A stretch of 64,000 nt of DNA, from contig CAZWSC010000096.1 in the NCBI GenBank assembly GCA_964636385.1, forward strand, positions 3,593 to 67,592. The letters run 5' to 3'. Below the pieces are notes generated by a model. The model did no database searches. It was given only the letters and a program-made list of their open reading frames with translations, and was not told where the DNA came from. This document shows, one piece after another, positions 6,377 through 31,255 of the stretch. The stretch is from an uncultured bacterium. Lineage in GTDB: Bacteria; Eisenbacteria; RBG-16-71-46; CAIMUX01. Position 1 is the stretch's first letter. Each line of letters starts with the position of its first letter. Both the position numbers and the translations under genes were made by a program.

Positions 6377-8110
6377 GTGATAACACACGAGTATGATGCG
6401 GTGATAGTCGGGGCCGGCGGCTCAGGGCTGTACGCAGCCCTGGAGGCCGGCCGTCACGCGCGAACAGCGGTGATCAGCAAGATCCTCCCCTCGCGAAGTC
6501 ACACAGGCGCGGCCCAGGGGGGGATCGGCGCCGCCCTCGGCAACATCGAGGAGGACCGGCCGGAGTGGCACGCCTTTGATACGGTCAAGGGGGGCGACTA
6601 CCTTGTCGATCAGCGGGCTGCGCAGACCCTTGCCGAGGAGGCGGTCCGGGCCGTGTACGACCTCGAGAACCGGGGCCTGCCATTCAGCCGCACCGAAGAC
6701 GGGCGTATTGCCCAGCGCAGGTTCGGCGGGCACACGAGGAACTTCGGAGAGGGCCCAGTACACCGCAGCTGCTACTCCGCCGACCGAACCGGCCACATGA
6801 TACTGCAGACGCTTTATCAGCAGTGCATCAGGAACGAGGTCGGCTTCTTCAACGAGTTTCACATTGTCGAAGTGATCATGTCCGGGAACCGCCCGGCCGG
6901 TATCCTTGCCCTCGAACTCGCGACCGGCGAGATGCACCTCTTCCGCTGCAAGGCGCTTCTCTTCGCGACAGGCGGTTTCGGACGCATGTTCAGGACCACC
7001 TCCAACGCCTACGCCAACACCGGCGACGGACCCGCACTTCTTGCCCGCGCGGGAATCCCCCTGATGGACATGGAGTTCTTCCAGTTCCATCCCACCGGCA
7101 TCAAGGGGATGGGGATCCTGATAACCGAGGGGGTCCGCGGAGAGGGCGGGATTCTGCGAAATCGCGACGGCGAGCGGTTCATGGAGAAGTATGCCCCCGC
7201 CCTGCTCGACCTGGCCCCGCGCGACATGGTCAGCCGCGCAATCATGACCGAGATAGCGGCCGGCCGCGGGATGCGCGGCGACAGGAAGATCGACGACTAC
7301 GTGATGCTGGATGCGACCCACCTGGGACGGGAGACGGTCAACAGCAAGATCCCCGACATCGCCGACTTCTGCAGGACCTATCTCGCCGTCGATCCGGCCG
7401 AGCAGCCGATGCCCGTACAACCTACTGCGCACTATGCGATGGGTGGCATCCCCTCCGACATCGACGGCGTTGTCAACACCGGGAAGGTCACATACGAGGG
7501 GCTCTATGCCGTCGGCGAGTGCGCATGTGTGTCTGTACACGGCGCAAACAGGCTTGGGACGAACAGCCTCGTGGACCTCGTCGTCTTCGGGAGACGCGCA
7601 GGGATGCACATCGCAGACTACGTGAAGAACGCCTCCATGCCACCGGTGCCCGATGGTGCAGGCGAGGCGGCAATCAGGAAGATCGAGCGCCTGCACGACG
7701 GCAGGAAGGGCCCGAAGGTGGGGCCGCTGTACACGCGGATGCAGGAGACGATGATGGCGAATGTCGGCGTCTACCGGAACGCAGGGATGATGGCGGAGGC
7801 GGTTGAGCTCGTGCAGGCCCTGCGCGGTGAGTTCAGGCAGGTGCGGGCCGAAGACTCGAACCGTGCGTTCAACTCCGATGTCCTGGGCATCCTCGAACTC
7901 GAGAACCTGCTCGACCTGTCGCTCGTCACCGCCGCAAGCGCGCTCAACAGGACTGAGAGCCGGGGCGCCCACAGCCGCGAGGACCATCCCGAGCGCGACG
8001 ACGTGAACTGGCTTAAGCACACTCTCGCCTCCCTGGAAGGAGACGATGTGAAGATCGGCTACAGGGATGTGGATGTCTCGATCTGGAAGCCGAAGCCGCG
8101 GACGTACTGA
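6377..8110 (+). CDS. sdhA: Succinate dehydrogenase / fumarate reductase flavoprotein subunit
   Basis: GTG start with AAGGAG RBS 7-12 nt upstream. FAD-binding N-terminus [16 protein letters not shown]. Covalent-FAD His region [10 protein letters not shown]. Conserved HPTG, ANRLG and C-terminal capping-domain motifs. Confidence 0.9.
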
Positions 8111-8131
8111 GAGAAGGCAGGGGGAGCCGTC

Positions 8132-8875
8132 ATGAAGGTCACACTCGAGATCCAGCGTTTCAACCCGGAGAGAGACTCCGAGCCGCACTTCCAGAGCTTC
8201 GAGGTCGAGGTCGAACCCACAGACCGGGTCCTCGACGCTCTCATGGAGATCAAGAACAACAGGGATGGCTCGCTCGCCTTCAGGCGAAGCTGCGCGCACG
8301 GCGTCTGCGGATCCGATGCGATGGTGATTAACGGCATGGAAGCCCTTGCCTGCAAGACCCTGATCCAGGAGGTCGCGTCCGGGGAAGGAGCCACTGTCCG
8401 CATACAGCCCGCGCGCCACATGAAGGTCCAGCGCGATCTGATGGTCGATCTGGACGGCTTCTTCGCAAACTACCGCAGGGTGAAGCCGTTCTTCATTCCC
8501 GATGAGACCAGGTCCGGATCGGGCAGGGAGTTCAGCCAGAGCATCGAAGAGCGGGCCATGATCGACGATCCGACGAAGTGCATACTCTGCGCCTCGTGTT
8601 ACTCCGCATGTCCCGTGCTCGACAGCAAGCCAGGCTTCATCGGTCCGGCCGCGCTTGTCCAGGCCGGCCGCTTCATCTTCGACAGCCGGGACCAGGGGCT
8701 CGGCCCGCGCCTCGAAGTCCTCGACCAGCCGGACTCAGTCTGGGCCTGTAACAATCACTTCGAGTGCACGAAGGTCTGCCCGCGGGAGATCAAGGTCACG
8801 AAGCTGATCAACTCTGCGAAGAGGAGTATCAGCAGGTATCGCGAGGAGCGCGGAGAGAGAGTGAACGACGGCTGA
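8132..8875 (+). CDS. sdhB: Succinate dehydrogenase iron-sulfur subunit
   Basis: 2Fe-2S ligands CAHGVCGSDAMVINGMEALAC. 4Fe-4S/3Fe-4S cluster motifs CILCASCYSACP and CNNHFECTKVCP. Immediately follows sdhA with RBS GGGGGAG. Confidence 0.9.
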   Translation: MKVTLEIQRFNPERDSEPHFQSFEVEVEPTDRVLDALMEIKNNRDGSLAFRRSCAHGVCGSDAMVINGMEALACKTLIQEVASGEGATVRIQPARHMKVQRDLMVDLDGFFANYRRVKPFFIPDETRSGSGREFSQSIEERAMIDDPTKCILCASCYSACPVLDSKPGFIGPAALVQAGRFIFDSRDQGLGPRLEVLDQPDSVWACNNHFECTKVCPREIKVTKLINSAKRSISRYREERGERVNDG

Positions 8876-9168
8876 TTTTGAAGGTCATGGTTGTTACCCG
8901 ACGCTGAACCGTCGCAACAAGGGTTGTACAGCATCGTGACGTGGAACCCGCTGTGAGCTCCCCGACGAGAAGAAAGTGATGCCACACACGCTGTTTCCGG
9001 TTGCCATCCCGCCTGATTGCTGAGATCATGGTTAAGTCAGTGTAATCCGCGCCGGTTCAAGGCTGATGACGTTTCATGACAGGGAACATCTGCGCATAAG
9101 CCTCCTATCGGTTGCGGGCAGTGTGAGTGGGAAGATCGGCATCCGCCGGGTGCCATGCGGAGGCGAAA

Positions 9169-9831
9169 ATGAGAGTTGATACCCAGTCACTGGTTCTTGC
9201 CGTCCTGTTACTTCCGGTCGTTCTCTGGGGAACCGCTACCATTGCAGGAGATGATCCCCCTCAATGCGTCTGGTCGGGCGACATTGACGGAGCAGGTCCT
9301 CACTACTCGGTGGAGGTCGTCTGCAGTGGCGAAGGCCGCTCTGGACCGTGTCATGTGGACGTCACCAACACCGGCCTCGAACCATGGGGCGATTTCCACT
9401 TCGAGATCTACGACCCCATTGGTGGTCAGGACATCTCGAACGTACACTTCCTTGACGCAGGCATGGGCGGAGCAGATCCGGTCAGCTCCCAGTCCGGGCT
9501 CGTCTGGATTATCGACAACGAGGTCGTCGGAGCGAGAATCGATCTCTACTACTGCTCCGATCCGGTGATGCCGGGTGAGACGGCATTCTTCGAGGTCTAC
9601 GTGGACAATCCGGATGAAGTGCCGTTCTACGGGGTCATGCTCTACCCGACACCGGTCCCCCCGATCGCAGTGTGCTGCGCTCCGGACGGAGGATGCACGC
9701 TCGTGTGCGAGTACGACTGTCTTCCGCCGAGCACCTGGCATCCCGAGTGGGATACCTGTGATCCAAATCCGTGCGAGCCGGTGCCGGTCGAGGAACCGAC
9801 CTGGGGTGTGCTGAAGAACCTGTATCGATAG
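9169..9831 (+). CDS. Secreted Cys-rich hypothetical protein ending in TWGVLKNLYR motif
   Basis: In-frame ATG 9169 gives signal peptide MRVDTQSLVLAVLLLPVVLWGTATIAG; track start 9127 is 14 aa further up. 13 Cys, several in CC/CxxxC arrangements. C-terminus ...EPTWGVLKNLYR* resembles the tail of ORF 34418-35029. Overlapping 320-aa minus-strand ORF 9208-10170 judged antisense artefact. Confidence 0.5.
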   Translation: MRVDTQSLVLAVLLLPVVLWGTATIAGDDPPQCVWSGDIDGAGPHYSVEVVCSGEGRSGPCHVDVTNTGLEPWGDFHFEIYDPIGGQDISNVHFLDAGMGGADPVSSQSGLVWIIDNEVVGARIDLYYCSDPVMPGETAFFEVYVDNPDEVPFYGVMLYPTPVPPIAVCCAPDGGCTLVCEYDCLPPSTWHPEWDTCDPNPCEPVPVEEPTWGVLKNLYR

Positions 9832-10269: not shown

Positions 10270-11028
10270 CTACCAGAACCACCACGAACTGGTTGCCATC
10301 ACGTGGATTCCGAGTGCCAGGTTGGCGACCATGTGGCTGATCCAGCAGGCGGCCAGGCTTCGGGTTCGCATCAGCAGGAGCGTCCACGCGATTCCCGTGA
10401 GGAGCGCCGGAAGCCACTCCGGGTGTGCAAGCGTGAACAGCGGAATGGTCACGACAGCCCCCTTCAGGGTGACAGTCCCGACCGGGAGCTTCGTGAAGTC
10501 CGCGGCGGAGATCCAGCGCATCAGGAAGGATCGCCAGAAGATCTCCTCTATCAGGGGCACAACCAGGACCAGGCCGTAGAATCGTGCCACGAGGAAGATG
10601 ATCCGCCAGCCTCCATCCAGCCCGGCCGGATCGAACCCCGAGCGCCCGCCCAGGAGCGGGATGTCCGGATACCGGCCGTGGAGTCCGACCCATGCGGCAT
10701 AGACCATGAGCCCCAGGAGGATTGCGGCAGCCCATGCGCCGGCGCCCGTTCCCGACGTGCTTCCCCGCTTTCCCCGGATGCGGAGCCCCAGATCCCTCCA
10801 TGTCGACCTGCAGAGCCACGCCGTGACCGTCACCAGAAGGATCTTCGACACGTAGGCGGCCATGAAGGCCCGGGGAGCGGGACCACCACCCTCTCCTGCA
10901 GGAAGCAGGCTCTCGAGGGATGTCAGCACCAGGAAGACCAGCATGGGGGCGATGTAGGGAAGCCAGGGACGGCGCGGGTTCGGATCGGTCATCGAATCCT
11001 CCATTCTCACTATAGCCGGCAGGGTCAC
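10270..11028 (-). CDS. CPBP-family intramembrane metalloprotease (CAAX protease-like)
   Basis: 252 aa, multi-pass membrane protein. EExxxR motif (IEEIFWRSFL) plus downstream conserved His residues (TLAHPEW...ISHMVANL) typical of the Abi/CPBP family. Confidence 0.7.
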   Translation of the reverse strand: MTLPAIVRMEDSMTDPNPRRPWLPYIAPMLVFLVLTSLESLLPAGEGGGPAPRAFMAAYVSKILLVTVTAWLCRSTWRDLGLRIRGKRGSTSGTGAGAWAAAILLGLMVYAAWVGLHGRYPDIPLLGGRSGFDPAGLDGGWRIIFLVARFYGLVLVVPLIEEIFWRSFLMRWISAADFTKLPVGTVTLKGAVVTIPLFTLAHPEWLPALLTGIAWTLLLMRTRSLAACWISHMVANLALGIHVMATSSWWFW

Positions 11029-11150
11029 TGCAGCCAGACAGCGCCGAATGTTACCCCGGCTGGGACAGGGCGTCCATGCCGTAGCGCTGGAGATTGCTGC
11101 GCAGGGTCGATACCATGTCCCCGCGCAACCGGCGCGGAAGGGAGAGTCTG

Positions 11151-12641
11151 ATGGGCACCCACTACGACAGGATGATCATGATCTGCCGCGAGGCCTACGC
11201 GATCAGCAAGTCGTCCTCGGTCCTGTCCTGGGACCAGGAGACCCACATGCCGCCAAAGGGGGCCGACGCGCGCGGCCGGCAGATGGCCGTGCTTTCGGGA
11301 CTGACGCACGACAGATTCACATGCCGGGAGATGGCCGAGGCGATCAGCGGGGCGGAGGGTGAATCCCTTGGTCCCGACGAGGCGGTCAACCTCCGCGAGA
11401 TTAAACGCGACTACGAGCGGGCGGTCCGTGTCCCGGTGGAGTTGGTGAAGGAGATGAGCCGGACCTCCTCCCGCGCGAAGGAGGCATGGCGCGAGGCCAG
11501 GAAAAACAACGAGTTCCCCGTCTTCGCCCCCCTGCTGGAGAAGATGATCGACCTGAAGAAGCGATATGCCGAGGCGGTCGGGTACGAGGGTGAACCCTAC
11601 AACGCCCTGATCGAGGACTACGAGCCGGGCATGACGGTGGCCAGGTTGTCGGAGATTTTCGGCTCACTGCGGCCGCGTCTGATCGCCGTCGTGGAGAAGG
11701 TACGCAACGGAACCCCGCCGCGCTCGGACTTCCTTCACCGCCGCTATCCGCAGGAGAAGCAGATCGAGCTTTCCCGCAGGGTGCTCGAGATGATGCAGTT
11801 CGACTTCCAGGCGGGGCGGATGGACGTGTCGACGCACCCATTCACCACCTCGTTCTCTCCGCACGACGTGCGCCTCACGACGCGGTCCAGCGAAGACTTC
11901 TTCAGCATGTGTCTCTTCGGGACAATGCATGAAGGCGGTCACGCGCTGTACGAACAGGGCCTGCCGGCCGAACATGACGGCACTCCTCTGGGCGATTCGG
12001 TATCCCTGGGGATTCACGAGTCGCAGTCACGTCTCTGGGAGAACCAGGTCGGCCGTGGTCGTCCGTTCTGGCGGCATCTCTATCCGGTCGTGCGCAGGAT
12101 GTTTCCGGATGCCCTCCACGATGTCACGGAGGAGGAGTTCTACAGGGGCGTGAACGAGGCCAAACCGTCGATGATCCGCGTGGAGGCTGACGAACTTTTC
12201 TACAACATGCACATCATGCTGCGCTTCGAGATCGAGCGCGGACTCATCCGCGGCGACATCAGGCCATCCGATGCGCCTCAGGCATGGTGCGAGCGGATGA
12301 AGGAGTACGTCGGCATCGTCCCCGGGACCGACACGGAGGGGGTCCTGCAGGACATCCACTGGTCGATGGGGCTTTTCGGGTACTTCGCCACCTACTCCCT
12401 GGGGAACCTGTACGCCGCCCAGTTCATGGACACCATCAGCCGCGAACTGCCGGACCTGGATGACATGATCGCTGCCGGCGACCTGAAGCCGCTGCGCGAG
12501 TGGCTGCGCGAGAAGATCCATCTGAATGGGAAGCGGATGTGGGCTGAGGATCTCGTGCAGGAAGTGACGGGTGAACCGCTGAACGCAGACTACCTCATCC
12601 GTTACCTCGAGACGAAGTTCGGGGAGATCTACGGATTCTGA
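11151..12641 (+). CDS. M32 family carboxypeptidase (Taq-like metallocarboxypeptidase)
   Basis: HExxH zinc site in GTMHEGGHALYEQG. Additional M32 signatures DVRLTTR, GIHESQSRLWEN and ADELFYNMHIMLRFEIE. Start moved to in-frame ATG 11151 (MGTHYDRM...) because the upstream extension is Arg-rich and non-protein-like. Confidence 0.85.
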   Translation: MGTHYDRMIMICREAYAISKSSSVLSWDQETHMPPKGADARGRQMAVLSGLTHDRFTCREMAEAISGAEGESLGPDEAVNLREIKRDYERAVRVPVELVKEMSRTSSRAKEAWREARKNNEFPVFAPLLEKMIDLKKRYAEAVGYEGEPYNALIEDYEPGMTVARLSEIFGSLRPRLIAVVEKVRNGTPPRSDFLHRRYPQEKQIELSRRVLEMMQFDFQAGRMDVSTHPFTTSFSPHDVRLTTRSSEDFFSMCLFGTMHEGGHALYEQGLPAEHDGTPLGDSVSLGIHESQSRLWENQVGRGRPFWRHLYPVVRRMFPDALHDVTEEEFYRGVNEAKPSMIRVEADELFYNMHIMLRFEIERGLIRGDIRPSDAPQAWCERMKEYVGIVPGTDTEGVLQDIHWSMGLFGYFATYSLGNLYAAQFMDTISRELPDLDDMIAAGDLKPLREWLREKIHLNGKRMWAEDLVQEVTGEPLNADYLIRYLETKFGEIYGF

Positions 12642-12727: not shown

Positions 12728-15355
12728 ATGTCGATGCCATTCGCTTATGCAGTCGCACAGGGCCGTCCGCGCTTCGTTCCTGCTCTCCTCTTCGCCGTGC
12801 TCCTTCCCGCGTTGCTTCTCACAGCTGCCGGCGATGGCGGTGCATCGGGGGATTTGCGCCCCAGGGGCTGGCTCGGCATCTACTCCGGCGATGTGGGGAA
12901 CCTCCCCGAGATCGAGCCTGGTGCAGGCGGATGCGAGGCCCTTCAGGGTGCCCTGTCCGGGCTTCGGGTTACCGCCGTGTCTCCGGACTCTCCGGCATCC
13001 CGGGGCGGCCTCCTCACCGGGGACATCCTGATCGCGGCACAGGGGATTCCGTTCGCATTCCCGGCGGACAGTGCGCGGAAGCTCTTCCTGGCGGAGGTGG
13101 GCCGGCTCTTCGATGGCGATCCGTTCTCCGTCCGGGTGATCCGCCTCGCGGTCGACAGGGAGCTGGCGCTTGACGGCCTGTTTGTCGACCAGGACAAGGC
13201 TGCAGGCTTCTGGCGCACACCCGGCGAGTGGCTGGAGTTGCTGGAATCAGGCCAGTCGCTGACAGCACGGGCGGAGAAGCGGCAGCAGGTCCTCGATCTG
13301 GAGATCACCCTCGGCGCCCGTCCCGAAGCCCGGTGGCCTGCTCCTCCAGGCAATGACGAGATCTACCCGCCGGACCGCTTCAAGCCGAGCGAGTGGAAGC
13401 CCCTCGTGCTGCGGATGGCCGGGGAGGCCGCAGCTGGGGAGCAGACACAAGACCTTCTCGAGCGGCTGGCCCGCTGCCACGTCACTGCGGATCCGTACCG
13501 CCTGGACTGCATGACCTACGTCCACCGCGATCCATTCCGCCTGGAATCTGTCTCGCGCGAGATCCTTGATGGAGTCCACCGCGCATCATCCGCTGCGGAT
13601 TACCTGGAGTGGAGCAGGCAGTGGCTGGAATCCGCCTCAGGCCGCGAGGCGTTTGACTCGTTTTCGCGATCTGAAGCTGAGGTTCCACCGTTACCCGGCC
13701 ATGACAGCGGCGTTCCTCAGCCGAAGCGGGAACCCGCCGAGCACGGCATCTTCCCTGATGGCGTCGACGCTGCCGGCAATGTGGTGCCTCACATGGTGAG
13801 GCCGATCATCCATTGGATCGAGCATGTCCTGGAGGGCGCCCGAACATGGCACGCGCGCGCCTTCCGTCATCTCAGCGAAGAGGAGATGACGTTTCTCGAG
13901 GAATCGATCTGGGATCTGGGGGATGTCTTCGCCGAGACGATCTACATCCACTTCGACGATGACTCGGAACGCTTCGCCCGCAACAGGCGCATCCTGGACC
14001 TCGCCGCCAGGGTTGACTACGCGGCGCTGTTCGAAGCCGCGTCATGGGCCGCGCGCCTCGCGGATCCAGCGTGGATACGCGAGACGGCCGTCCTGCTGAG
14101 GACGGCATACGAAGACCGGATGGAAGATGCGATCCTGCTTTCCCGGGAGACTCCGTTCGGGAAGATCCTGATAGCGGGCGGGGCAGACAACTGGCACCGC
14201 GACGCGGAGGTTGCCTTCCTGATGGATCTTGGCGGCAACGACTTGTACACAGGCAACTCGGGGGGGAGCTTCGGGCGGAGCCTCCCCGTCTCCATTTGCC
14301 TGGATGTTGAGGGGGACGACGCATACGAGTCCACCGTCAACGGGTTCCAGGGCGCGGGGATCCTCGGCATCGGGATGATGGTCGATCTCGAGGGGGATGA
14401 CCAGTACATCGGGCCGCAGTGGTGCCAGGGTACCGGCTATCTCGGCATCGGAGTGCTGCTCGACCTCGAGGGGGACGACGTCTACCGCGGCCGTACCTTC
14501 TGCCAGGGGGTCGGCCTGTTCGGCGCGGGGCTTCTCATCGACGAGTCGGGGAACGACCGCTACGAGGGTGACGCCAAGGTGCAGGCTGTGGGGCTTGCCA
14601 GGGGACTCGGCCTGCTGCTGGACCGCTCCGGGAACGATTCGTACTACGCGAAGGGACTCTATCCCACCGGCTACGGCGACGCGGGGATCTTCGACGCGTG
14701 GTCCCAGGGAAGCGCGATCGGGTTCCGGACCCTGGCGTCGGGCGGCCTTGCGGTACTACTGGACGGAGGAGGATCGGACAGGATGGAGGCCGGCAACTTC
14801 TCCCAGGGGGGCGGCTATTACTACGGCCTCGGGATCCTGAACGCCCGTGGGGACGGCGACGACGTGTACATCGGATCCCGATACAACCAGGGGTTCTCGG
14901 CCCACCAGGCAGTGGGTGCCTTCCTGGAGGATGGGGGGAACGACTTCTACACGACGCGCCAGGGGGTGGCGCAGGGGCTGGCGTGGGACGAGTCGGTCAC
15001 CCTCTTCATCGACTCGGCCGGTGACGACACCTACGAGGGCGGGGGATCCTTCTCACAGGGCGCGTCGGCGCACAACAGCATCACGGCGTTTCTGGACCGT
15101 GGCGGGCGGGATCGCTACGTGTACAGGCCTGGCCAGGCGCGCGCGGGCGGGAACGACTATCACGGCGGGAGCAGCCTCTCCTTCTTCGCGGACGAGGGCG
15201 GGGACGAGGACTCCTACAGCGCCCCGAACTCCGCCAACAACGCCTTGAGACTCTCCCCTGAATACGGGATCTTCCTCGACCTTCCCGGGAGTCTCATGGA
15301 GATGCAGGAGGATCGCCTCCCCGTCAAGCTTCGGAGGATCGGGGAGGAGCGCTGA
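12728..15355 (+). CDS. Secreted PDZ-domain protein with about 12 tandem ~27-aa h4-D-x2-G-[ND]-D-x-Y ... Q-G-x-G repeats (unnamed repeat family)
   Basis: 875 aa. Signal peptide PALLFAVLLPALLLTAAG. PDZ-like segment LRVTAVSPDSPASRGGLLTGDILIAAQG. C-terminal half is built of repeats such as IGMMVDLEGDDQYIGPQWCQGTGYLG / IGVLLDLEGDDVYRGRTFCQGVGLFG / AGLLIDESGNDRYEGDAKVQAVGLARG. No catalytic motif recognised. Confidence 0.6.
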   Translation: MSMPFAYAVAQGRPRFVPALLFAVLLPALLLTAAGDGGASGDLRPRGWLGIYSGDVGNLPEIEPGAGGCEALQGALSGLRVTAVSPDSPASRGGLLTGDILIAAQGIPFAFPADSARKLFLAEVGRLFDGDPFSVRVIRLAVDRELALDGLFVDQDKAAGFWRTPGEWLELLESGQSLTARAEKRQQVLDLEITLGARPEARWPAPPGNDEIYPPDRFKPSEWKPLVLRMAGEAAAGEQTQDLLERLARCHVTADPYRLDCMTYVHRDPFRLESVSREILDGVHRASSAADYLEWSRQWLESASGREAFDSFSRSEAEVPPLPGHDSGVPQPKREPAEHGIFPDGVDAAGNVVPHMVRPIIHWIEHVLEGARTWHARAFRHLSEEEMTFLEESIWDLGDVFAETIYIHFDDDSERFARNRRILDLAARVDYAALFEAASWAARLADPAWIRETAVLLRTAYEDRMEDAILLSRETPFGKILIAGGADNWHRDAEVAFLMDLGGNDLYTGNSGGSFGRSLPVSICLDVEGDDAYESTVNGFQGAGILGIGMMVDLEGDDQYIGPQWCQGTGYLGIGVLLDLEGDDVYRGRTFCQGVGLFGAGLLIDESGNDRYEGDAKVQAVGLARGLGLLLDRSGNDSYYAKGLYPTGYGDAGIFDAWSQGSAIGFRTLASGGLAVLLDGGGSDRMEAGNFSQGGGYYYGLGILNARGDGDDVYIGSRYNQGFSAHQAVGAFLEDGGNDFYTTRQGVAQGLAWDESVTLFIDSAGDDTYEGGGSFSQGASAHNSITAFLDRGGRDRYVYRPGQARAGGNDYHGGSSLSFFADEGGDEDSYSAPNSANNALRLSPEYGIFLDLPGSLMEMQEDRLPVKLRRIGEER

Positions 15356-15437: not shown

Positions 15438-16514
15438 TCAGGCCCAGCTCTCCAGCAGCCCGTCGAACAGGCCCGATGCGTCCAGGACTGCCAGCTGGAT
15501 CGCCTCTCCCCGCTCGGGATCAAGCCTTTTCCCGGCCAGGTGGTAGTGTCTGAGACCGGCCCAGTGCTCCTGCATCCACGCAGCAACCTGCTCCTCGCCG
15601 TACCAGTGGGTATGGTAGTCGCCGACTGTGCGTATGTGCCCGGTGCCAACCGCCTTCGCCACCTCATCCGGAATCCGCGTCAGGGTGTGCTGCTCCTTCA
15701 CCAGGTTTCCATCGCAGTCGTAGACATCCACGACCACGGTCTGGTCGGGGTCGCGGACGGACTTGTGACGCTGCGCCTTCTGCCTGTAGCGCATGCCGAC
15801 GAATTCGCCGGGATGAAGCCACCTGGCCTGACCGAAGAGATGGATCAGGCTCTCGTAGAGAGGCAGGGCGTGGGTGGCCACGGCGCCGCGCCTGAAAGCA
15901 CTGATCACGGCCATTCCCTTCGACGGCTCCACCATCCTGCGCACCGAGCGGAACAGAGCGGCTGCTCCATTGGGGGAGGGAAACAGGCCAATGGAGTTGC
16001 ACATGCTCACGACCAGGGGCATGGTTTCCGGGAACTGCAACTGCAGGCTCTGGATGCTTCCGGTGCGCATGAGCAGGCGACTTCGCAGCATGTTCGAGAG
16101 CCCGGCCTCCACAAGCCGGCCCTCAACCCGGCTCAGCTGATGTGCGGAGAAGTCGACCCCGGAAACGCGCGCAAGCCTTGCGGCCAGATCCGGGTCGAAG
16201 GCGAGGGAGGGATCCTTGCTCCTGATCCGCTCCAGGCGGATTGAGTCGGACAGGGATGCCGACCTGGGATCGGCGGTCTTGATCCCGTAGCGGTAGTGCA
16301 GCCGGCCTATTCCGCATCCGATGTCGACCAGTTCGATCCTGCCGCTGGACTGACTTGCGACATGATGCAGAAGGCGGTCCATGAATTCATGTTCGAAGGC
16401 GAGCATTGAAGCGATGGCGGGATGCTCGGCCGCCATGTCATCCTCGACGGCTATGCCCGGTGCCTCCCATGGCGGTGGATCGGGATCCCGCAGGGAAAAG
16501 GCTTCAGGTTCCAT
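15438..16514 (-). CDS. Class I SAM-dependent methyltransferase
   Basis: 358 aa. Motif I LVDIGCGIGRL followed by typical Rossmann-fold spacing. Substrate unknown. Confidence 0.55.
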   Translation of the reverse strand: MEPEAFSLRDPDPPPWEAPGIAVEDDMAAEHPAIASMLAFEHEFMDRLLHHVASQSSGRIELVDIGCGIGRLHYRYGIKTADPRSASLSDSIRLERIRSKDPSLAFDPDLAARLARVSGVDFSAHQLSRVEGRLVEAGLSNMLRSRLLMRTGSIQSLQLQFPETMPLVVSMCNSIGLFPSPNGAAALFRSVRRMVEPSKGMAVISAFRRGAVATHALPLYESLIHLFGQARWLHPGEFVGMRYRQKAQRHKSVRDPDQTVVVDVYDCDGNLVKEQHTLTRIPDEVAKAVGTGHIRTVGDYHTHWYGEEQVAAWMQEHWAGLRHYHLAGKRLDPERGEAIQLAVLDASGLFDGLLESWA

Positions 16515-29452: not shown

Positions 29453-30973
29453 CTACTCAGGAACTCTGACAGCGAGGAAAATCTCCGAGCCGTCCCGCCA
29501 GATCAGAAACAGTGCCGGCCTGCCCCGATCCACGCTGTCGAGGGCCCGCTCCAGGGAGGGTGCACTCAGGACCTTCTCTCCAGCGACCTCAAGGATGACA
29601 TCCCCTGCCCTGATACCTGCCCGTCCCGCGGGCCTGGTTCTGTCGACGTCAGCGACGACTACACCGTCGACGGAAGGAGGCAGGTCGATCTGTCGCCGGA
29701 TTCTCGCCGTCAGCTCCTCGACGGCCAGCCCAAGATCCTGTGCGAGGTTGCGGGTCCGTGCCGTCTCTTCCTTCTCGAGTCCGGCTGCAGCCAGGTCGCC
29801 GTCCAGTTCACCCAGTGTGGCGCGCAGCCTCTCCCTCCTGCCGTCCCTCAGAACGACGATGTCCACCCCGGACCCCGGATCGTAGGCGGTCACCCTGAGT
29901 TGGAGGTCCTCAACACCGGCGATCTGCTGTCCGTCCAGTTCCAGGATCACATCCCCCTGCATCAAACCAGCGTCTTCAGCCGGGCTGTTCTCGACCACAC
30001 GTCCCACAAGGGCACCCCTCGGGCGATCCAGTTCGAAGATCTCCGCCATCTCGGGTGTGAGGTTCTGAATGTTCACGCCAAGCCAGCCGCGAACGACCCG
30101 CCCGGTTCTGATCAGGCTGTCCATGATCCGCTGAGCCATGTTAATGGGGATTGCAAAGCCTATCCCCTGGTATCCCCCGCTGCGCGTGGCGATGGCTGTG
30201 TTGATCCCGATTATCCTGCCGTCCAGGTTGACCAGGGGACCGCCAGAGTTCCCGGGGTTGATCGCCGCGTCCGTCTGAATGAAGTCCTCGTAGTCGGCGA
30301 CGCCGATCCTGCTCCGTCCTGTTGCACTTACTATTCCCGCCGTTACCGTAGAGGAGAGGCGGAACGGGTTCCCGAAGGCCATGACCAGCTCGCCCACCTC
30401 CAGAGCGTCCGAGTCGCCCATCTCAACCGGATGAAGATCCGGGGCGTCGATCCGAATCACGGCTACGTCGCTCTTGGGGTCCCTGCCCACGATCTCACCC
30501 TTGAATGAACGGCCGTCGTGAAGCATGACCTGGATGTCGTCAGCGTCGGCTACCACGTGATTGTTGGTGAGGATATAGCCGTTCCGGCTGACGATCACCC
30601 CGGATCCGCTGCCGACCTGTGGGATATCACGCGGGGCCTGGAAAAACCTGCCGAAGAACTCATCCCCGAAGAAGCGGAAGCCGTCGGGAGCGGGCATACC
30701 GCTGACGCGGATGCTTCTCTCGCTGGTGATGCTCACCACACCCGGAAGCACGGTCCTTGAGATCTGAACGAAGGCCCGGCTTTGACTGCGAAGCGCCTCG
30801 ATCCCTTCGGAAGCGGATTGGGCCGAGGCCGCTCCGGAGCCGATGCTGAATGCTGCCGCTACGGGTTGCCCGCCGCGCGAGATCTCAACCCTCCAGTCGA
30901 GTGGGTTGAGCAGAAGGGTTGCGAGCCCGAGGGCTCCGATTGTCAGGGATATCCAGAAGAAGCGCCTGTTCAT
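29453..30973 (-). CDS. HtrA/DegP-family periplasmic serine endoprotease with two PDZ domains
   Basis: Start at in-frame ATG 30973 (MNRRFFWISLTIGALGLATLL signal/anchor). Catalytic triad context: TNNHVV (His), SDVAVIRI (Asp), GNSGGPLVN (Ser). Two PDZ segments (GALVGRVVENSPAEDAGLMQGDVILELDG and GVVVADVDRTRPAGRAGIRAGDVILEVAG). Confidence 0.85.
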   Translation of the reverse strand: MNRRFFWISLTIGALGLATLLLNPLDWRVEISRGGQPVAAAFSIGSGAASAQSASEGIEALRSQSRAFVQISRTVLPGVVSITSERSIRVSGMPAPDGFRFFGDEFFGRFFQAPRDIPQVGSGSGVIVSRNGYILTNNHVVADADDIQVMLHDGRSFKGEIVGRDPKSDVAVIRIDAPDLHPVEMGDSDALEVGELVMAFGNPFRLSSTVTAGIVSATGRSRIGVADYEDFIQTDAAINPGNSGGPLVNLDGRIIGINTAIATRSGGYQGIGFAIPINMAQRIMDSLIRTGRVVRGWLGVNIQNLTPEMAEIFELDRPRGALVGRVVENSPAEDAGLMQGDVILELDGQQIAGVEDLQLRVTAYDPGSGVDIVVLRDGRRERLRATLGELDGDLAAAGLEKEETARTRNLAQDLGLAVEELTARIRRQIDLPPSVDGVVVADVDRTRPAGRAGIRAGDVILEVAGEKVLSAPSLERALDSVDRGRPALFLIWRDGSEIFLAVRVPE

Positions 30974-31255
30974 GGCTCCTATCCTCCATCCAAATGTTGG
31001 GTAACTCGACCAGGGGCCTGCGTTGTCACCATTGCCCGGATCCCGGCGCCTGGCATTCCATCTGGTCAGCGAGGGCAGCCGTCCGAAAAGAAGAAAACCC
31101 TTCGGATACCGGATGAGTTCCAGGGAAGCCTGAGGCCGGACGGCAGAGAGCTGTCTGCCACTCACGACGGGGGGGCTCGGTGGCGGCTCCCAGGCCAGGC
31201 TTCTGCACCGGTGCCGACGGGGAGATCTGGTGGGGGACTCTCCGCCTCAGTGTCA

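Follow-up and report, generated by a model that had tools for sequence, protein, structure and literature searches.

Three groups of described solenoids come closest to the system studied here: the RTX repeat proteins, region IV of the antifreeze protein MpAFP, and the right-handed parallel beta-helices. MpAFP region IV (3p4g) is a solenoid of 19-residue coils with one Asp/Gly Ca2+-binding turn per coil and a single row of ions, and right-handed parallel beta-helices carry functional sites along one flank across several coils. Here, we analyze a repeat-bearing protein encoded in a 64,000-nucleotide stretch of DNA from an uncultured Eisenbacteria bacterium (contig CAZWSC010000096.1; the whole stretch is called the window below). 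An earlier reading of the window, made from its letters alone (the sequence-only reading), had proposed an unnamed tandem repeat in an 875-residue secreted PDZ protein. The open reading frame (ORF) lies exactly where it was claimed to be, and all five example peptides quoted from it are found there. We report that the repeats are, in a confident structural model, the coils of a beta-solenoid, and that this solenoid is an unnamed domain family, without a named counterpart in any database searched.

Repeat units and predicted fold of the C-terminal half

The ORF is complete and belongs to a group of related sequences. A database protein (P0001) is 100% identical to it, with a start two codons downstream and a length of 873 amino acids (aa). 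Candidatus Eisenbacteria metagenomes contribute about 60 further full-length orthologues, which are 50-80% identical; the window itself was traced to JGI metagenome 3300001533. Its features, in window coordinates, are as follows (AF2, AlphaFold2).

12728..15355, +: complete ORF, 875 aa, stop codon counted in
12728..12829, +: signal-peptide-like segment, aa 1-34, with R13/R15, a hydrophobic core and ...LLLTA/AG
12857..13327, +: HtrA-type PDZ with inserted beta-hairpin, aa ~44-200 (Pfam below cut-off, phmmer, Foldseek)
13340..14122, +: all-helical middle domain, aa ~205-465 (AF2 helices 224-460)
14132..15301, +: predicted beta-solenoid module, aa ~469-858, comprising unit 0, 12 units and a C-terminal cap (AF2 and profile)
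14135..14212, +: degenerate unit 0 or N-terminal cap, aa 470-495, ...GKILIAGGADNWH...
14213..14290, +: unit 1, aa 496-521, AFLM-DLGGNDLY...
14291..14371, +: unit 2, aa 522-548, SICL-DVEGDDAY...QGAG
14372..14449, +: unit 3, aa 549-574, GMMV-DLEGDDQY...CQGTG
14450..14527, +: unit 4, aa 575-600, GVLL-DLEGDDVY...CQGVG
14528..14608, +: unit 5, aa 601-627, GLLI-DESGNDRY...VQAVG
14609..14749, +: unit 6, aa 628-674, GLLL-DRSGNDSYYAKGLYPTGYGDAGIFDAWSQG...R667, with a conserved ~20-residue insertion (loop pLDDT lower)
14750..14833, +: unit 7, aa 675-702, AVLL-DGGGSDRMEAGNFSQGGGYYYG
14834..14914, +: unit 8, aa 703-729, first Asp replaced, ILNA-RGDGDDVYIGSRYNQGFSAH726
14915..14998, +: unit 9, aa 730-757, GAFL-EDGGNDFY...AQGLAW753D754
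14999..15082, +: unit 10, aa 758-785, TLFI-DSAGDDTY...SQGASAHN783
15083..15178, +: unit 11, aa 786-817, TAFL-DRGGRDRY...GGNDYHGG
15179..15265, +: unit 12, aa 818-846, degenerate, with a one-residue insertion, SFFA-DEGGDEDSY...
15266..15301, +: C-terminal capping strand, aa 847-858, GIFL-DLPGSL...
14705..15163, +: invariant non-repeat residues on coils 6-11, putative working surface (frequencies 0.87-1.00)

Roughly 12 units had been claimed for the C-terminal half, and one degenerate plus 12 recognizable units are present between aa ~470 and 858. They share the consensus h-G-h-h-h-D-x-[GA]-G-[DN]-D-x-Y-x-[AG]-x4-Q-G-x-G over 26-28 residues. The regular expression [DE]..G.D.[YM] matches at aa 500, 526, 553, 579, 605, 632, 679, 734, 762, and 790, giving 10 exact matches. 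Shuffling the C-terminal half 20,000 times, with its composition kept, gives 0.07 matches on average and never more than 2. Successive units are spaced by 26, 27, 26, 26, 27, 47, 28, 27, 28, 28, 32, and 29 residues, the spacing of 47 corresponding to the conserved insertion of unit 6. Degenerate units lie near aa 707 and 822, the degenerate unit 0 lies near aa 485, and a cap at aa 847-858 closes the array. A hidden Markov model (HMM) of the unit, trained largely on other species, detects 13 units in the ORF, and nowhere else in the window does it find a comparable array. In the DNA, Tandem Repeats Finder reports no array at the unit's period of ~80 base pairs (bp), only a 12-bp, two-copy repeat; the repeat is thus ancient rather than the product of recent duplication.

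The fold was modeled with AF2. The full-length model, from a 62-sequence alignment, has a mean predicted local distance difference test score (pLDDT) of 88.3 and a predicted template modeling score (pTM) of 0.87, and its strand pattern is strictly periodic over aa 469-851, mostly at pLDDT >90. A model of the solenoid domain by itself (pLDDT 87.2, pTM 0.88) agrees with it. By DSSP assignment of the AF2 model, each coil consists of strand 1 (h-G-h-h-h-D, 6 residues), the turn x-[GA]-G-[DN]-D, strand 2 (x-Y-x-..., 4-8 residues), the Q-G-x-G turn, and a short strand 3, and this layout recurs every 26-28 residues. The modeled coils have three strands and are stacked in parallel, as are the ~22-27-residue coils of beta-helices, which supports a solenoid fold of the general kind that had been suggested. 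The model thus shows the 26-28-residue repeats as successive coils of a three-strand solenoid of fixed size, ~390 residues and 12-13 coils.

For conservation we used 90 sequences, namely the window protein and 89 remote relatives, each from a different 50%-identity cluster. Pooled over 12 units, the turn positions are conserved at 84% (D0), 93% (G3), 92% (D5), and 84% (Y7), and the second turn at 41% (Q14) and 39% (G15).

Database matches and family distribution

No named repeat corresponds to the solenoid. At E<=10, Pfam-A and NCBIfam match neither aa 470-875 nor any of the 15 solenoid domains that were aligned; on the whole protein they return just the weak PDZ match described below. At the same threshold the Pfam families Beta_helix, NosD, and Pectate_lyase give none on the solenoid domains. 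Sequence searches of the Protein Data Bank (PDB) with the whole protein return PDZ domains, and searches with the domain profile and the 27-position unit profile return chance matches only (pseudouridine kinase, OmpK36). Foldseek with the full model matches only PDZ domains in the PDB. The sequence-only reading had named a confident hit to an existing family, beforehand, as its refutation; Pfam, NCBIfam, and the PDB sequences all lack one. Family proteins carry the public names "hypothetical," "PDZ domain-containing," or "HEAT repeat protein," and literature searches on the domain architecture and on the motif found nothing relevant.

A profile search, proposed earlier as the way to define the family, was run with the solenoid profile against 1.84 billion representatives of 50%-identity clusters. 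It yields 4,239 representatives at E<=1e-3 and 2,314 at E<=1e-30, and every match runs unbroken from about position 2 to 390 of the profile. Among 259 proteins whose solenoid is complete, 9-12 units are detectable, with a modal spacing of 26-27. Since unit count and spacing are nearly constant, the solenoid is a domain of fixed size rather than an expandable repeat. The units of the proposed tandem repeat are therefore real, but they do not repeat freely: they belong to one module that is matched end to end in thousands of proteins.

The solenoid family spans many bacterial phyla and is not lineage specific. Genome matches fall in Eisenbacteria, Krumholzibacteriia, Terriglobia (Acidobacteriota), Spirochaetia, Calditrichaeota, Armatimonadia, and Desulfobacterales; in many Planctomycetota, including Ca. 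Kuenenia and Ca. Uabimicrobium; in Verrucomicrobia, Lentisphaerae, and Kiritimatiellae; and in the Gammaproteobacteria Neptuniibacter and Amphritea. Neptuniibacter sp. QD29_5 is a culturable carrier of the family. The homologue in Candidatus Uabimicrobium sp. HlEnr_7 (NZ_CP165719.1, L058:6700) has a single in-frame TAA within the solenoid (GGGYYYGWGI*NDKGSDDDIYIGSRY), and family similarity continues perfectly past it; a sequencing error, a pseudogene, or read-through may explain this codon.

PDZ and helical domains

The protein looks exported, probably by the Sec route to the cell envelope, and would have three parts: an HtrA-type PDZ, a helical domain, and the beta-solenoid. Near its N terminus, AF2 models aa 20-34 as an isolated helix of low pLDDT, as for a signal peptide. 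Of 86 family members, 73 have an N-terminal hydrophobic segment and 16 a lipobox-like motif.

The N-terminal PDZ of the sequence-only reading is real, though weak by sequence: PDZ_6 scores 23.6 bits, short of the 27-bit cut-off, and PDZ_2 also falls below its cut-off. Many orthologues have precomputed PF17820 or PF13180 hits, phmmer matches the region to the PDZ of MucD/AlgW/DegS, and Foldseek matches its fold to DegP, DegS, AlgW, and MucD (E 2.6e-4 to 1e-3, probability 1.00). The carboxylate-binding loop R46-G-W-L-G50-I aligns with RGWLG of MucD; across the family the loop reads [FWY]-[LIV]-G (96%)-[IV], and G50 (96%), D99 (99%), and R139 (97%) are conserved. Pfam finds no Trypsin or Trypsin_2 domain in the protein, whose PDZ begins ~10 residues past the signal peptide.

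The helical domain has no Pfam or NCBIfam match at E<=10, and its linker at aa ~300-355 is variable and modeled with low confidence. It occurs together with the solenoid in 126 of 147 remote representatives. We considered H266, H408, D410, and D412 as an active site there and rejected them; they are conserved in Eisenbacteria orthologues, not family-wide.

A further observation concerns the PDZ type. The window also encodes a canonical HtrA, whose PDZ type is the closest relative of the PDZ in the solenoid protein.

29453-31165, -: canonical HtrA/DegP-type protease, 570 aa, Trypsin_2 and two PDZ domains

Conserved residues outside the repeat

Nearly all positions conserved at >=90% lie within the solenoid. 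In addition to the repeated D/G/D/Y and Q/G positions, a chemically varied set of residues outside the repeat consensus is essentially invariant. On coils 6-11 these are Q660 (100%), R667 (100%), F691 (98%), Y697 (96%), R718 (98%), Y719 (99%), H726 (100%), W753 (96%), D754 (98%), N783 (89%), N809 (89%), Y811 (90%), and H812 (87%). Several are invariant also in the PDZ-less and HEAT relatives P0063 and P0064. Several recur at one register from coil to coil, five residues past the Gln of the Q-G turn, which suggests that they form a contiguous stripe. Mean column identity is 0.60 for coils 6-11 and 0.53 for coils 1-5. A metal triad of H726, D754, and H782 was rejected, H782 being only 79% conserved and absent from P0063 and P0064.

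Domain architectures and gene context

Among the 147 remote representatives, PDZ, helical domain, and solenoid occur together in 101, helical domain and solenoid in 25, the solenoid alone (as judged with our HMMs) in 19, and PDZ and solenoid in two. The "solenoid alone" proteins have C-terminal HEAT repeats; P0063 and P0148 are examples of such solenoid-HEAT fusions. In P0117 and P0214 (1144-1161 aa), an alpha/beta-hydrolase-like region lies N-terminal to PDZ, helical domain, and solenoid; its match, to Hydrolase_4/S33, is below the cut-off at 25.2 bits.

In the Planctomycetes-Verrucomicrobia-Chlamydiae (PVC) group, the PDZ-less subfamily has a HEAT-repeat gene that overlaps the solenoid stop codon in all five loci whose sequence extends downstream. 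Upstream, 5/7 PVC loci have a PEGA-domain gene and 4/7 a DUF456 gene. The PEGA, solenoid, and HEAT proteins of these loci each have a signal peptide; the DUF456 protein crosses the membrane several times. Given the fusions and the overlapping adjacent genes, the solenoid is repeatedly coupled to an envelope protein-binding module, either PDZ or HEAT. In Lentisphaerae, Verrucomicrobia, and Kiritimatiellae, the cluster is ordered PEGA, DUF456, solenoid, HEAT (L090:6450-10767; also L006, L091, L092, L093, and L094), and PEP-CTERM, LacI, and NYN_YacP genes are often upstream of it.

Neptuniibacter sp. QD29_5 (CP180556.1, L089:7175-9449) encodes the protein in two overlapping genes, 7175-8017 and 8001-9449. 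The split falls in the variable linker, with PDZ and the first helical half on one side and the second helical half and the solenoid on the other. It could be genuine, or it could reflect a frameshift or a pseudogene.

In the window, the genes around the ORF encode CPBP, M32, methyltransferase-like, MGMT-like, and major facilitator superfamily (MFS) transporter proteins:

10270-11028, -: CPBP/Rce1-like intramembrane protease
11094-12641, +: M32 (Taq-type) carboxypeptidase, ending 86 bp upstream of the PDZ-solenoid ORF, on the same strand

Both peptidase genes are where the sequence-only reading had placed them, but the arrangement is not kept beside orthologues and has no bearing on function. 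Orthologous loci lack both genes, and a functional link to them was rejected. Cotranscription of the M32 and PDZ-solenoid genes in the window is possible.

Two smaller ORFs were also noted. A 358-aa ORF at 15438-16514 (-) is convergent with the PDZ-solenoid ORF, and its sole match is Methyltransf_25 below threshold (23.4 bits versus 27). A 234-aa ORF at 9127-9831 (+) has a hydrophobic segment at its N terminus, numerous cysteines (CC...C...C...C near the C terminus), and no Pfam match; it may be a secreted Cys-rich protein, or it may be spurious.

Proposed mechanism and alternatives

On balance, we lean, by no great measure, toward an exported protein of PDZ, helical domain, and solenoid with Ca2+-row turns, a working surface on coils 6-11, and ligand delivery by PDZ or HEAT. 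The D-x-x-G-[DN]-D-x-Y turn, at one corner of each coil, would act like the turns of RTX and antifreeze proteins and bind a row of Ca2+ ions, which would stiffen the solenoid only once it has been exported. The Foldseek hits that rank highest in the PDB and BFVD, though nonsignificant, are Ca2+-binding solenoids of the RTX and antifreeze kinds, in line with such a role. The Q-G-x-G turn may build a structural Gln ladder. R667, R718, H726, and D754, with flanking Tyr, Trp, and Asn residues, would be the working surface, where a groove or an active site would receive an extended polymer. The PDZ, through its conserved phi-G-phi loop, or a HEAT partner elsewhere, would bring the C terminus of a protein or peptide ligand to this surface. 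We regard as doubtful the further-reaching proposal that the family is a new class of Ca2+-dependent envelope enzyme or polymer-binding machine, with an Arg-Arg-His-Asp and aromatic site on coils 6-11 and interchangeable PDZ and HEAT recognition modules, widespread in Planctomycetota, PVC phyla, Eisenbacteria, Acidobacteriota, and others.

Several points weigh against the Ca2+-row model. Calcium binding is read from the invariant Asp positions, and conserved Asp/Gly turns can be purely structural, as in the Asp-box. The surface exposure of the invariant residues and the geometry of the Asp ladder are assumed from the sequence, and the signal peptide is called from hydrophobicity. Only two positions of the helical domain are conserved at >=90%; this argues against an active site there and gives little indication of the domain's role. 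Clustering of 79 loci found no conserved neighbor of the PDZ-fused genes, the best cluster occurring in 8/79, and therefore no pathway can be assigned to this subfamily. Foldseek with the solenoid-only model returns no significant match (best E 1.3 in the PDB and 0.65 in BFVD).

The alternatives differ mainly in what they make of the turns and of the invariant residues. The solenoid could be metal free and structural, its Asp/Gly residues capping the turns, and serve as a rigid spacer of ~60 Å, a stalk or an adhesin-like rod that holds PDZ or HEAT at a set distance, with neither groove nor catalysis. Beta-solenoids are often scaffolds, a constant length would suit a ruler or spacer, and neither the helical domain nor the solenoid has a catalytic motif recognizable in Pfam or NCBIfam. 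Yet coils 6-11 are better conserved than coils 1-5, acidic residues are kept at two positions in nearly every coil, and residues as varied as R667, R718, H726, and D754 are 98-100% conserved across phyla, which would be unusual for a spacer; we consider this explanation unlikely, if the least so of the alternatives. Those same Arg, Arg, His, and Asp residues, lining successive coils together with aromatics, could instead be the site of a new beta-helix enzyme, for example a peptidase or a Ca2+-dependent lyase or hydrolase of polysaccharides, with PDZ or HEAT recognizing the substrate. This explanation, which overlaps the Ca2+-row model, draws on the general observation that bacterial PDZ domains are mostly attached to proteases (HtrA, Ctp, and RseP), on the hydrolase-like region of P0117 (Hydrolase_4, below cut-off), on weak Foldseek hits to the beta-helices of pectin methylesterase and GH87, and on PVC loci near PEP-CTERM and exopolysaccharide-export genes. 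However, no enzyme family is significantly similar, no substrate-pathway genes are conserved beside the PDZ-type genes, the invariant residues are equally compatible with binding, and the PVC synteny may merely reflect relatedness. We therefore hold it to be rather improbable.

A divergent RTX repeat protein, exported as a type I secretion substrate, would account for the common G-[DN]-D-x-phi-x-G core, the Gly/Asp-rich composition (G 19%, D 10%), and the top, nonsignificant Foldseek hits, which are CyaA RTX block V and a phage protein annotated as a "haemolysin-type calcium-binding repeat." Against this, HemolysinCabind of Pfam matches neither the window protein nor its C-terminal domain nor any of 14 other aligned domains at E<=10; a PDB search with the unit profile brings up no RTX chain, and the unit HMM scores negative on EhxA; units recur every 26-28 residues, not every 9 or 18; the signal-like segment is N-terminal; and no ATP-binding cassette (ABC) or membrane fusion protein (MFP) genes of a type I secretion system (T1SS) occur in the ~8 kb scanned around the ORF. 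This makes an RTX protein very improbable. The window has 64% G+C and many overlapping spurious ORFs, as would be expected if composition had produced the array by chance in a Gly/Asp-rich, high-GC ORF or if the ORF were noncoding or spurious. The shuffles, hundreds of full-length homologues with position-specific conservation, and the confident AF2 model rule this out, and we give it a negligible chance.

If the family holds as described, a domain found in at least 4,200 50%-identity clusters and in about a dozen phyla has neither a Pfam or NCBIfam entry nor a solved structure. Anammox Planctomycetota and PVC bacteria are among its carriers, as are a few Gammaproteobacteria that can be cultured. 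Defining it would name the unannotated core of thousands of proteins now labeled "hypothetical" or after their PDZ or HEAT accessory. An RTX-like turn in another coil geometry, a conserved polar stripe, and swappable PDZ and HEAT modules would make it a tractable target for the study of post-export folding and partner recognition.

Comparison with known systems

The PDZ aligns with and superposes on the HtrA PDZs of DegS, DegP, MucD, and AlgW, including the R-G-phi-phi-G-phi strand and loop. Unlike HtrA, the solenoid protein has no trypsin-like domain, its PDZ is followed by helical and solenoid domains, and the PDZ itself has a long inserted beta-hairpin.

Among solenoids, RTX proteins (PF00353; CyaA block V, HlyA/EhxA, and the serralysin C-terminal domain) resemble the family in the core G-[DN]-D-x-(aromatic or aliphatic)-x-G: EhxA has GNDRLYG and GDDQLFG where the solenoid has GNDRYEG and GDDQYIG. 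Both are Gly/Asp rich, extracytoplasmic, and solenoid shaped, RTX proteins are the top though nonsignificant Foldseek matches in PDB and BFVD, and by analogy the two may share Ca2+ at stacked turns and folding after export. In contrast, RTX proteins have two turns per 18-residue, two-sided coil, while the solenoid has one per 26-28-residue, three-strand coil, together with a second conserved turn, Q-G-x-G, and a fixed number of coils. They also carry a C-terminal T1SS signal rather than the N-terminal Sec-type signal of the solenoid protein. With filters off, the unit HMM aligns only its profile positions 8-19 to the nonapeptides of EhxA (the pO157 RTX toxin), at -0.2 to -5 bits. Because EhxA scores negative and only a seven-residue core is common, the resemblance is at the motif level only. 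The earlier statement that the repeat is not RTX thus stands on the profile searches and the period, while the turn is nearer to RTX by motif than that statement implied. The solenoid is not a member of the RTX family, though its turn may work like the RTX turn.

MpAFP region IV (PDB 3p4g), an antifreeze domain from Marinomonas, shares the arrangement of one Asp/Gly turn per coil and has the best target-normalized TM-score among the weak hits, 0.47. Yet this match is nonsignificant (E = 8, root mean square deviation 9.6 Å), sequence similarity is absent, and region IV is an ice-binding adhesin region without PDZ or helical partner domains. Right-handed beta-helices (pectate lyase/PbH1, pectin methylesterase, and Ag43) likewise have three strands per coil, ~22-27 residues, and polar turn ladders, and they are among the weak Foldseek hits; they differ in giving no profile or significant fold match and in lacking a strict D-x-x-G-x-D-x-Y repeat. 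Beta-solenoids with Asp/Gly turns are known already as a kind, and nothing about them is overturned here; the family described here adds to them a 26-28-residue, three-strand coil in a domain of fixed size.

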